From positions 16,430,001-16,494,000 of the forward strand of contig OZ024757.1 of the NCBI GenBank assembly GCA_964016885.1: a stretch of DNA of 64,000 nt. Direction: 5' to 3'. Below, one piece after another: positions 3,563 through 46,822 of this stretch (positions within the stretch are counted from its first letter, which is position 1; every line of letters starts with the position of its first letter). The position numbers were made by a program, and so were the translations under genes. This DNA is from Eledone cirrhosa. Lineage: Eukaryota. Below the pieces are notes generated by a model, which searched no databases, was not told the origin of the DNA, and saw only the letters and a list, made by a program, of their open reading frames with translations.

Positions 3563-3635
3563 GAGAAATCATCAGGGCTCCCTGATGATTTCTTTCGAAT
3601 GAAACAGTTCTAGTTCTGTAAAAGCCATATTTATA
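3563..3635 (+). mobile_element. PLE terminus with hammerhead-like core and short 5' fold-back (family P0)
   Basis: CTGATGA 3582-3588 ... GAAAC 3601; hairpin AGAAATCATCAGGG/CCCTGATGATTTCT; related to 62582-62751 and 35815-37153. Confidence 0.6.
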
Positions 3636-13568: not shown

Positions 13569-13821
13569 ATATGTATATATATATAAGTGGTTATACAACA
13601 GTTAGTTCACCATACCGAGAACAATTGTTTCACCTTAGCGGATCCTCAGCTCGTAATGGACATGGTTATACGGAACAGGAAGAACAACCGTACGAACGCA
13701 CATGCGCAGAAACGATCACTTCACACAGGCAATACTAAATTGCGTGCGAGAGGTGTAAGGGCGATAACTGCGAAAGTCCGAAAGTTTCTAGTTGATAAGA
13801 AAAATAGGATGTTGATGTAAT

Positions 13822-14064
13822 TCAATCCGGAGCTTTGTAGTTATGTAAGAGGTGTCTCCAGACGTGTGGACAACGTGTGAAGAATTCATTTCTCGTGTTT
13901 AGGCAATCACTATTGCGTAATCTCTTTAGAATATTTATTCGTTCATCAATACATAGTCCACACGACGGATTGCCCCTTGCGTATGGCTTGGACTTTGTGA
14001 TGGCTTTCCATTGAATGGAGTAGTCTATACTTGAGTCCTTGAGGGACCATACGTGACTATCGAG
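13822..14064 (-). pseudogene. PLE GIY-YIG endonuclease C-terminal fragment
   Basis: SHVWSLKD..YSIQWKAITKSKPY...CGLCIDERINIL...LNTRNEFFTRCPH, homologous to 44779-45348; the N-terminal part of the listed ORF is only the inverted UTR. Confidence 0.85.
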
Positions 14065-14216
14065 TTTTTTCTTATCAACTAGAAACTTTCGGACTTTCGC
14101 AGTTATCTCCCTTACACCTCTCGCACGCAATTTAGTATTTCCTGTGTGAAGTGATCGTTTCTGCGCATATGCATTCGTACGGTTGCCCTTTCTGTTCCGT
14201 ATAACCATGTCCATTA

Positions 14217-14254
14217 CGAGCTGAGGATCCGCTAAGGTGAAACAATTGTTCTCG
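14217..14254 (+). ncRNA. Minimal type I hammerhead ribozyme (mirror copy on minus strand ~13616-13653)
   Basis: CGAG-CTGAGGA-tccgctaaggt-GAAA-CAATTG-TT|CTCG. Confidence 0.75.
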
Positions 14255-31608: not shown

Positions 31609-31916
<308 letters not shown>

Positions 31917-31921
<5 letters not shown>

Positions 31922-32440
31922 AATTAAGTTAAAAATGTACATCCACATATGTATACTGAAATACTAGTATGCATATGAATACACACACGTGTACATATGT
32001 AGATGTACCGAGTTTTCACTGGTCACTTTACTGTGAGTGTCCAGCTATTCTGTATGTAGACACACAGACAAACCGGTTCTTAGAGTCATACTGGTTTTTG
32101 AGGAAACACCTTTCCTCTATTCTCCAGAAAGCCAGACAAGGAATATTGGACTAGTTTCGATGTTGTTACATCTCATCAGCAATATTTACCTATCTTCCGG
32201 CTTCTCTAGAGAATCGTGAAAGCACATATCGTTATATGCTTTTTCTATGAAAATTAGTAGTGGGCAGACCAATTTGCATAGAGCGTGAGTACGTACCGGT
32301 TCAACGGAGACGATAAAAACAAATAACGAAACGAAATTAAATTTCGTTTCGTTTGTAACTCACTTTTGTATGACTGGCGCTTAAACAATTAAGTTAAAAA
32401 TGTACATCCACATATGTATACTGAAATACTAGTATGCATA
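31917..32440 (-). mobile_element. Retrozyme-like unit: 465-bp period, ~59-bp terminal redundancy, one internal hammerhead
   Basis: Direct repeats 31917-31975 and 32382-32440; hammerhead at 32142-32186. Confidence 0.6.
32142..32186 (-). ncRNA. Canonical minimal type I hammerhead ribozyme
   Basis: Minus strand: AATATTG-CTGATGA-GATGT aaca ACATC-GAAA-CTAG-TC|CAATATT; stems I and II pair perfectly. Confidence 0.88.
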
Positions 32441-32567
32441 CAAAGACGGTGTGGTAAGAACTAGGAAAATACTCGAGACTTAGGGTAGCAGAGTGGGTAA
32501 TAGGAAAAGATTCAGGACGCCGACGGCTGAGCTCCGGCCGTTTCGACAGTTAGATCCGAAGTTCGGA
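32441..32567 (-). mobile_element. P1-variant PLE terminus
   Basis: Homologous to 10231-10370. Confidence 0.7.
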
Positions 32568-32639
32568 TATATATATATATATATATATGCGTCTGTGTGT
32601 GTGTGTGTGTGCTGAACACCGCACTATATATATATATAT

Positions 32640-35814: not shown

Positions 35815-36358
35815 TAGGTCCCGGGTTGAGTCACAGTAAGTAAGGTACTCAATACATGGCAGAGTAAAAAATGTTTATTGTATAGAAGGAGCTTCTACAG
35901 GACTAGTACTATTTCATTCAGATGAAATCTTCAGGAAGCTGGGTGTCATATTAAGTTCTGGTATTTATACATTTAGGTAGTGGCAAGGGAGGGGTGGTGG
36001 CTGGGGGGGGATTTTTGGGGGTATATATATGTGATTATATATGTATGTGTGTATATGTATATATGTATATATGTGTGTATGTATGTGTTTGTGTGTGTGT
36101 GTGTGTATGTATGTGTATGTATGTATATGTGTGCATATGTATGTATGTGTATGTATAGTATAGTTTATACCGAGAGACATACATACATGTATGTGTGTAT
36201 ATATATATATATATGTGTATACGCACGTGTGTATGTGTAAGAGATACATATATGTGTGTGTATGTGTATGCGTGTGTGTGTGTATATTTGTGTGTTTGTG
36301 TTTTTTCTTGTGTGTATATATATATATGTGTGTATATATATGTGTGTGTGTGTATATA

Positions 36359-36421
<63 letters not shown>

Positions 36422-37153
36422 GCATATGTGTGTATATGTATATATATATATGTATATGTGTGTGTATAGGTATGCATATATATATATGTGTGTGTGTAAG
36501 TGTTTATGTATGTGGTTGTGAGTATGTAAATATATTTTATTCTTTCCATTCTACAAAAACACTCTGGCCACCTGGGGCTTGTATGTTAACTTGACCACTC
36601 ACCTCAGTCTGTGCTATGATTCGGTCTTGTTTATCTTCTATTACCAACCCACCTAAAAAGATTTCCCTACTATATATCTGTTGAATTACTATTCTTGGGT
36701 TTTTTTATTTATTTATATTTTTTTTATTTATTTTCTTTATTTATTTATTCATTTATCTATTTATTCATTTATTTACTTATTTATTTATTTCAAAAAAGCA
36801 CTCTGGCTAATTGACCACTCCCCAAAGAAAAAACGGCCTGTGCCATGTTGTGGTTCTGTGTATCTAAATACCATCCTACCCCAAAAATCCCCCCCTCCCC
36901 AGCCACCACCCCTCCCTTGCCACTACCTAAATGTATAAATACTTGTTTCTACTTTAGGCACAAGGCCAGCAAATATCCAGTGCATTACTGGTACTTTATT
37001 TTATCGACCCCGTAAGGATGAAAGGCAAAGTCAACCTCGGCGGGATTTGAACTCATGTATAAATACTAGAACTTAATATGACATGTATAAATACTAGAAC
37101 TTAATATGACATCCAGCTTCCTGAAGATTTCATCTGAATGAAACAGTACTAGT
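35815..37153. mobile_element. Large P0-related fold-back PLE remnant with a nested S1 SINE (36942-37056)
   Basis: ~35905-36020 is inverted relative to 36880-36942 plus 37057-37153; AGCTTC-CTGAAGA-TTTCATCTGAAT-GAAAC-AGTACT-AGT core; tail on the left arm. Confidence 0.7.
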
Positions 37154-38661
37154 ATATATATATATATATATATATAATAAAATATAGAGAAAAATACTGC
37201 AGGTAGCACATGGATAACATGTAATAAAATGAGTCCCTCATCAGTGATTTGCCGACGATCATCGATATTTCATTGCATTAAAAATCAAATATATACATGT
37301 TTAGTTGTTTCTCACGTTGACAGTTAGATATGAAATTCTTTACAAATGTCCATTGGTATTTTTTACATTTTTACACTTTGAAATCGAATCTTGCTTTATC
37401 ACGGCCCAGCCCACGAATGTGCCGCGGTAGATGATGCTTTGAGAAGTAGTAGTTTAGTTAGTTATTAATTTATTGTCAATTACTACTCGTTAAGGAATGA
37501 GATGTATTAAAAATCTGTGGAAATTCTAATTCTGAGAATAACAACACACAGTGAAACTTTAAAGTAATATGGCGACCGTATTCATCTAAATATTCTATTG
37601 TCTTTTGATGTTCATCAATTATTTATATATTCCTGAATTAAAATTAAATTATTTCTTAGTTAAATAATTAATTTCACCCTAAGTTAATTCAATACAACCT
37701 AAAATCTTTCGCTTCTTGTTTGTATGGAGGGATATCATTACAATTTGAATGTCGGTCAGGTTTTCACATCCTTGGATATTGGAATGTAATATATTATTAA
37801 ATTCCTGATATTTTAATTAGCGGATTTATTTGATAAACTAGTATTTAATTTCCATACAGTTTTACATACGCACCAGCCTCTCTGGTACTCTTTCTCTCTC
37901 TCTCTCTATCTATCTATCTCTGCCCATGTTGTCATTGTTTTGTTTTGTTTGTTGCTGTTGTTTTCCTTGTGTGTATGGTGTGTGTGTGTATGAGTGTGTG
38001 CGTGTATCTATATGAGTGTGTGTATATATGTATGAGTGTGTGTTTGTATGATAGTATGTGTAAGAGTCTGTCTGTATGAGTGTGTGTTTATGTGTGTGTG
38101 TGTGTGTGAGCGTTTGTATGAGTGTGTGTGTATGAGTATGTTTGTATGAGTGTGTGTGTTTGTCTGTATGTGTTATTTGGGGTGGGTCTACGACTGTCAG
38201 TTGCCCGTTGTTCAACATCAACACCAATCAAATTAAATTTGTAGCGGTGGAGTCTTTTGGGGTTCTTGGTCTCCCGAAATCCCCTCCCTGATGGCCATCT
38301 GCAGTAGTGAGTCCAACCAATTGAAATGGCTATTTAAACACATCTCTCCTTCGCTATCCTCTCCTCCGGGAATAACACTTTTCCCATTCCATCCTTCGCT
38401 AATTACATGGGGCGAGTTGCGGCCTGGATTTTTCGTTATAGAGAGCATTCTCCCACAATGTCCGGCTTCGTATCATTGAGGTAGTAATGGTATAGGTTGT
38501 TGATATCTACAACGTTTCCTCGCACACACGCACGCACACGCACACACATACACAAACACAAACACACACACACGCACACACACACACACACACGCGCACA
38601 CATACACACACGCGCACACATACACACACGCGCACACATACACAAACACAAACACACACAA

Positions 38662-42875: not shown

Positions 42876-46822
<3,947 letters not shown>

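Follow-up and report, generated by a model that had tools for sequence, protein, structure and literature searches.

Insertion ends and unit uniformity in a hammerhead retrozyme family of Eledone cirrhosa: indications of Penelope-type insertion from a probably circular RNA

The present analysis assigned the segment at 31917-32440 (minus strand) of the window, a stretch of 64,000 nucleotides of Eledone cirrhosa (assembly GCA_964016885.1, contig OZ024757.1, positions 16,430,001 to 16,494,000), to an abundant family of non-coding hammerhead repeats which is, by its sequence, a non-LTR retrozyme. We consider it probable that the mechanism as a whole is that of a 5'-truncated retrozyme, inserted at an (AT)n tract by a Penelope-like element (PLE) and copied from a circular RNA of 465 nt. 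Taken singly, the window copy is ordinary. The kind of element is known, and the genomic evidence on its movement was not found in the literature searched.

The window copy and its family

In this study, unit position 1 is the base directly after the predicted ribozyme cut. The window copy, a 5'-truncated retrozyme insertion of 1.13 units (524/465, as an earlier note on this DNA had calculated), covers unit 174-465 and then 1-232, and its 3' end is of the '230' class. The exact redundancy of 59 bp without the ribozyme that the same note had described was confirmed, since 31917-31975 and 32382-32440 are identical at 59/59 bases with a spacing of 465 in a segment of 524 bases. The 3' copy of this overlap (31917-31975, minus; unit 174-232) is incidental to the point of 5' truncation, and the 5' copy (32382-32440, minus) starts at the 5' junction with TAT, which may be microhomology to the target tract. 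The 3' end abuts a (TA)14 target tract (31891-31918) with which it shares 2 bases, so that the first 2 bases (TA) of the segment may belong to the tract. Between the two fixed 3'-end sites of the family lies a 'tail' segment (unit 233-301; 32313-32381, minus), and the second of these sites (301, at 32313) is internal in the window copy. The tail contains the perfect hairpin that had been reported at 32326-32353; it is present, and that interval is one base too narrow, the 13-bp arms being 32325-32337 and 32341-32353 (32325-32353, minus). A long AU-rich hairpin (31935-32008, minus, unit about 141-214) is located just 5' of the 230 site.

The right flank was tried as a second arm and rejected, as it is an older high-copy repeat on the same strand, outside the element (32441-32568, minus), whose own 3' end, one that usually precedes (AT)n, lies at the 5' junction. 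Because the 5' junction adjoins a repeat end that is usually followed by (AT)n, the target was probably that tract.

The octamer ATTTGCAT was found at 32272-32279, where it had been claimed, and is given on the minus strand as ATGCAAAT (unit 335-342). Newt satellite 2 is an snRNA-type promoter repeat, in which an octamer and a proximal element occur as in host snRNA genes. In 4 of 48 U2 loci, no octamer was present within 320 nt, and the unit had no significant match to these loci (the best was equalled by 21/300 shuffles); a role of the octamer as part of an snRNA-type promoter thus received no support in these 4 loci. At C3:307.35-307.45 Mb, U2 snRNA genes form a tandem array that repeats every ~2.2 kb.

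The textbook hammerhead that had been noticed at 32142-32186 (minus) proved to be of type I, with stem I formed by AATATTG (32186-32180) and CAATATT (32148-32142) and with the core CUGAUGA followed by a 5-bp stem II with a 4-nt loop and by GAAA. The predicted cut is GUC/C, between 32149 and 32148. Helix III is minimal, reduced to the palindrome ACUAGU (32155-32150), as in the dimer-dependent type; a short helix III is usual in animals and needs a second hammerhead nearby, according to the available text of PMC4209133. Rfam HH9 matched with 38.9 bits and E 3.9e-8, below its gathering score of 52, and the Rfam search of the whole window returned no motif at or above the gathering score. The catalytic core was unvarying in 30/30 aligned units, in an alignment in which the first 100 columns of L069 are misaligned, and one stem II pair was compensated (A-U in 16 units, U-A in 14), a swap that is probably one inherited event. 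A large subfamily has U for C at the cleavage position (GUU), usually alongside the compensated stem II pair.

Genome-wide, 9,214 exact matches to a 35-nt hammerhead pattern were obtained vs 0 for the reversed control; therefore, the hammerhead is not a product of chance. The similarity search of the 3.0-Gb genome gave 266 matches from 33 scored of 544 candidates, mostly in head-to-tail arrays with a period of 465 that were spread over many contigs. The copies were ~87% to 100% identical to the window unit and fell into several subfamilies of 465-470 nt. No ORF of at least 150 aa was found over the unit, which thus does not carry the RT and GIY-YIG ORF of an autonomous PLE. The GC content was 173/465, below 50%, the folding of the 465-nt unit was stronger than that of its shuffles (z -8.2; 0/100 shuffles as good; circular MFE -153 kcal/mol), and there were no long terminal repeats, the element ends abutting (AT)n. 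A self-paired monomer, tandem dispersal, lack of coding and low GC are retrozyme features, and the earlier proposal of a non-LTR retrozyme candidate is therefore upheld by the testable features of the class. The window copy itself, with one hammerhead, falls short of the two-unit criterion for an active element in a 2026 preprint (bioRxiv 10.64898/2026.07.22.740005); it is a product, and it is unlikely to make the circle itself.

The appearance of this single locus would also suit a long target site duplication (TSD), or a local duplication, of 59 bp around a chance hammerhead. Copies lacking the 59-bp segment would speak for such a duplication; none was observed, as every array has the segment inside each of its units (9,214 units), so that the TSD reading falls and its probability is negligible. 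A long TSD among the targets is unreadable because these are (AT)n tracts.

Several variants of the family were also observed. A distant relative at L038:5700-6450 and L105:2700-3090, 70-76% identical over parts of the unit, differs in its hammerhead-like core, which ends in GAAACTAGTA; an octamer occurs in L038, 88 nt upstream on both strands. One arm at L041:3880-5024 alternates between full units and two units that have an identical internal deletion (unit 331-444). The loci L178 and L179 (C1:55.96-55.99 Mb) contain an identical insertion with identical flanks 17.7 kb apart, either a segmental duplication or an assembly duplicate.

Insertion ends, paired arms and a candidate PLE

The 3' ends, in the ribozyme sense, were located at unit 300-301 or 224-232 in 106/114 arms not cut by a locus edge, many of whose loci had been selected by having a 301 end, and nearly all of these ends stood against (AT)n. 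Exact junctions of 301 with (AT)n numbered 1,850 genome-wide, and exact 230-type junctions numbered 385 on the forward strand; the pattern used for the latter misses some subfamilies, and overlapping matches inflate its count on the reverse strand. As the whole genome gave 0 junctions at the cut, priming from the 3' end that the ribozyme would generate was rejected. The 5' ends were scattered and were not enriched at the cut site (2/133 within 3 nt vs 1.7 expected; 2/117 in an overlapping earlier sample), with an apparent mild excess at unit 1-15 (9/133 vs 4.3 expected). Clusters of 5' ends were visible at unit 256-269, the 13-bp hairpin, and at 172-175, a range that includes the stop of the window copy; the 5' junctions may be set by structure or palindromic microhomology.

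Since the 3' ends are fixed and the 5' ends alone vary, the 59-bp redundancy represents the point at which the window cDNA stopped, and the window copy is likely a lone 230-type arm that ended 59 nt beyond one full turn. The description 'circularly permuted', under which the copy had been introduced, needs correction to the extent that the copies are not freely permuted. The genome-wide check proposed with it, which expected copies in different permutations or tandem arrays, yielded tandem arrays of the 465-470-nt unit; free permutation was not found, the 3' ends lying at the two internal sites.

Most insertions consisted of two back-to-back arms, one ending at each 3' site. In 79 consecutive C1 loci selected by their 301 end (80 taken; L179 dropped as a duplicate of L178), 83 insertions were recognized, 47 of which paired 301 with 230 and 0 of which paired 301 with 301; the others comprised 5 with a very short 230 arm, 24 one-armed, 2 with an odd second end and 5 extending past the sequence taken. 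All 14/14 resolved two-armed insertions of a similarity-chosen set paired 301 with 230. In the first 146 Mb of C1, where 100 and 42 ends were listed, 18/19 divergent pairs of at most 10 kb were 230/301, and no 230/230 divergent pair occurred among the 42 listed 230 ends; the lone 301/301 divergent pair (L162) consisted of two separate insertions. At L223:969-1035, 66 nt of GC-rich foreign sequence lie between the arms, both of which end at unit 14.

The target and the end rule were common to the retrozyme family and a young PLE in the same genome, of which 40/40 copies (the 40 scored of 1,836 candidates) were near-identical. Its 3' ends, all of them in (AT)n, fall at +172 or +232 past a hammerhead-like motif of the element itself. 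The +172 and +232 ends are paired in 11/11 two-armed copies. The ORF of 1,291 aa contains DKSG, YVDD, CX4CxxC and VYIG motifs and is weakly similar to GIY-YIG loci by tblastn; the PDB search gave only a weak GIY-YIG match (1mk0, E 0.18). As Pfam had no match in this ORF, and none in the 15 of the 71 window ORFs that were scanned, the identification as a PLE rests on the motifs and on tblastn to GIY-YIG loci. By the CX2-5CxxC motif as described in the accessible text of PMC8557442, its sequence is Neptune/Nematis-like.

In the available parts of the literature, a tail and an inverted arm are hallmarks of PLEs (PMC8557442), and an Anolis PLE in vitro cuts and extends both strands, its two start sites lying inside the RNA and delimiting the tail, with no strand difference in the start site and with hammerhead cleavage dispensable for insertion (PMC11167929). 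Based on these biochemical data and the shared end rules, the mobilization by a PLE that the earlier note had inferred is well supported, the ends, the pairing and the (AT)n target all being as in the young PLE, and we are confident that the retrozyme is inserted in the PLE manner. In array L031, the retrozyme is linked 5' to 5' with the young PLE ORF (99.5% identical), a single case located where a small contig ends. Locus L167 adjoins a broken PLE ORF that is possibly an older neighbour, and was therefore not counted as a second chimera. The young PLE may be the actual partner of the retrozyme. The unit has no significant homology to it, nor to the 30 GIY-YIG loci compared out of 10,595 candidates, and the tail lengths differ (60 nt vs 69-77 nt in the retrozyme), so that another PLE may serve instead.

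A 10-mer, GAAACGAAAT, common to both tails was noticed by eye. In the window, ~52441-52647 (+) is a terminal part of the young PLE with the hammerhead-like motif and the +172 end in (AT)n. The two arms of two-armed PLE copies (L134-L150) mostly have the same 3' UTR haplotype, as judged by eye, with L140 differing; this hints at the use of a single RNA for both arms by the autonomous PLE as well. These two-armed copies of the autonomous PLE presumably need no circle.

Other families in the window have comparable outlines. A high-copy insertion (31703-31890) immediately to the left of the (TA)14 tract includes a long perfect inverted repeat (31703-31805), the right arm of which continues for ~85 nt until (AT)n. 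This insertion, whose sequence is also found beside L045 and L162, resembles a two-armed tail/no-tail insertion on a small scale, from another family. The 32441-32568 repeat has 2,411 candidates, with the best other copies at 94-95%; its ends adjoin (AT)n, and partial copies in inverted orientation are frequent. Many of its contigs in run X1 end in (AT)n at 32500, suggesting that this repeat has two ends as well. Divergent pairs of hammerhead-core-like motifs (13617-14253, 35901-37156, 50638-50865, 60787-61031 and 42961-46715) are probably further two-armed PLE-type insertions, and single hammerhead-core-like motifs occur at 3582, 7737, 28997, 52819 and 61513.

Unit uniformity, A>G changes and the template

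The units of one array were more alike than those of different loci: in L165, L166, L172, L177 and L182 the mean distance within the array was 0-0.7 vs 2-6 to the nearest other locus, and the arrays of L154, L158 and L187 were more mixed. No unit differences were seen in either arm of L165 (17 pieces) and L215 (10 pieces). A near-private variant was fixed in both arms of 16/52 two-armed insertions, and a difference fixed between the arms was found in 0/18 insertions with at least 2 units per arm.

The changes fixed throughout an array, read on the ribozyme strand, comprised 28 A>G vs 7 T>C (p 3e-4; 28/53 in all), and those confined to a single unit comprised 20 A>G vs 23 T>C (20/189 in all), the A>G share differing between the two classes with a Fisher p of 3e-10. 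Three A>G changes were present in 14/14 covering units of L165, and one A>G each was present in 12-16 units of both arms of L182, L192 and L203. The 28 A>G events represent 22 distinct sites, and 8 of them come from one insertion (L187a). Their neighbour context gave no indication of the 5'-G avoidance of ADAR (3/22 vs 26/145, p 0.77). Because the A>G bias is found in array-fixed and not in single-unit changes, the changes arose on one strand in one unit and were then copied throughout, the units not having changed one by one; repeated reading of one edited circle would give this outcome. These data suggest that one monomer, probably edited, was read repeatedly, although the same reasoning would hold for a polymerase error with a strand bias. 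Of the reverse transcription around a circular RNA envisaged in the earlier note, a repeatedly read monomer template has good genomic support.

Some arrays point to other templates. In L185, two variants are present in both 3'-most units and absent from the inner units, two unit types follow each other in rough alternation in L210, and the array of L157 is a mosaic; accordingly, some templates were dimers or multimers, or were switched. If the PLE copied uncut linear multimers of existing arrays, with no circle, these three loci with more than one unit type would be expected, as would 5' ends that ignore the cut site, and the dispensability of hammerhead cleavage for PLE insertion in vitro (PMC11167929, available text) would agree. 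However, independent editing of the units of a multimer would give an A>G excess in single units, whereas the excess was confined to array-fixed changes, and a linear route can neither make arrays longer nor bring a new variant to fixation in 12-16 units. The 5' ends of the 301 arms were also not clustered at 230 as L1-type twin priming predicts (11/79 in 210-250 vs 7.0 expected). We consider this linear route unlikely.

Block-duplicated variants were found in L154, L192, L206, L218 and L228. Some arrays thus grew later by DNA duplication, and long arrays overstate the turns of reverse transcription. These loci are what would be expected if a short insertion from one edited RNA unit had afterwards expanded in place by unequal exchange, the satellite or local expansion model that is favoured by Li, Clavereau and Pollet (2026, bioRxiv 10.64898/2026.07.22.740005) in the available text of their discussion. 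Such expansion is an improbable origin for the family as a whole, since both arms exceed one unit in 21/54 two-armed insertions, each arm starting mid-unit and having to cross the cut site, and since very long arrays are found among the near-uniform copies (22 pieces in L032+33, 23 in L059+60, 17 in L165; rows L041 and L051 were left out of the listing of array lengths and internal differences).

The uniformity and the fixed A>G changes are equally predicted if one monomer was amplified, prior to insertion or in its course, by RNA-RNA rolling replication to a linear multimer, by template jumping repeated on one cut monomer or by fold-back copying of the initial cDNA. RNA-RNA replication is raised in the accessible text of PMC7229834, and the mosaic L157 does switch unit type. 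Jumping between free monomers should mix haplotypes, against the 0/18 arm-fixed differences, and fold-back is a poor fit, as either arm can be the longer one (0.9 vs 12.4 units in L039); amplification of this kind is quite improbable. A circular template for reverse transcription is, in our estimation, rather probable. Contigs from the sequencing runs X4 (495 nt) and X6 (496 nt), approximately one unit plus 30 nt, are compatible with a DNA tandem or a circle and were left out of the evidence.

Proposed mechanism and comparison with known elements

Based on the combined evidence, the following course may be proposed. Multi-unit arrays would be transcribed, and adjacent hammerheads, pairing as dimers, would cut out monomers that are then ligated, as in other retrozymes. 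Some of these RNAs would gain strand-specific A>G changes, probably by A-to-I editing, with the bias observed in the arrays and the enzyme assumed. Nicks in both strands of an (AT)n tract would then supply two ends, from which cDNA would be primed on one and the same RNA, at unit 301 and at 224-232; the ends and their pairing are observed in the genome, and the priming is taken from PLE biochemistry. The cDNAs would run across the ligation junction for a variable length and be joined 5' to 5', as the arrays and junctions are, and some arrays would later lengthen by the block duplication of DNA that is seen in the genome. In its strictest form, to which we give an even chance, each insertion is the fossil of one circular RNA, copied in many turns by an asymmetric pair of PLE reverse transcriptases that are primed from the two strands of the cut (AT)n tract and start at two sites ~70 nt apart, with the edits written into all units of both arms.

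In the available text of PMC7229834 and of the 2026 preprint (bioRxiv 10.64898/2026.07.22.740005), metazoan non-LTR retrozymes are likewise non-coding tandem units with one type I hammerhead each, low GC, strong self-pairing, no LTR, thousands of copies and co-occurrence with PLEs, and the palindromic helix III of the window family resembles that of axolotl HHR_Amex1. Unlike those retrozymes, for which circles were shown in coral, mussel and axolotl, the window family is known from the genome alone. Fixed 3' ends, two-armed insertions, (AT)n targeting and array-fixed A>G changes are not described for published retrozymes in the accessible text of these two papers, and the words 'inverted' and 'microsatellite' do not occur in the text of PMC7229834 that was available. 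The searched literature, mostly from outside subscription journals, contained no report of two-armed retrozyme insertions or array-fixed editing marks. The preprint, as far as its text was accessible, reports co-occurrence with PLEs and, in Xenopus, homology of the retrozymes to pLTRs, whereas in the window family no homology to the candidate PLE was found.

With EN+ PLEs, as presented in the available text of PMC8557442, PMC11167929 and PMC4209133, the family shares two internal 3' ends split by a tail, an inverted 5'-truncated arm, a tail that is as a rule confined to one end, targets that are AT-rich or (TA)n, and a hammerhead upstream of the start sites. It differs from them in lacking an ORF, in the tail length (69-77 nt vs 30-40) and in having multi-unit arrays in both arms. 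The pairing of one end each is strict in the window family, whereas in vitro the EN+ PLE starts without strand preference (PMC11167929, accessible text). The non-autonomous MRC1 of Chlamys is similar in being non-coding and PLE-mobilized with multicopy head-to-tail insertions; the Chlamys elements, however, match their autonomous partner at the 3' end, unlike the window family, for which no homology to the candidate was detected (PMC8557442, available text). The same text describes N-terminal-EN PLEs as being without canonical hammerheads, whereas the window family has one.

Mobilization of metazoan non-LTR retrozymes by PLEs and a circle as the template of reverse transcription have been proposed as hypotheses (available text of PMC7229834 and PMC4209133), and this family provides genome-only evidence for both. 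The exact start sites (unit 224-232 and 301), together with a young PLE with an open frame, make both steps testable in the existing in vitro PLE assay, and the strict tail/no-tail pairing in both retrozyme and PLE constrains models of PLE integration. If each insertion is indeed the fossil of one circular RNA, the strict rule of one end each would show how the PLE integration complex is built, and RNA editing would be a heritable mutagen driving the evolution of the family.
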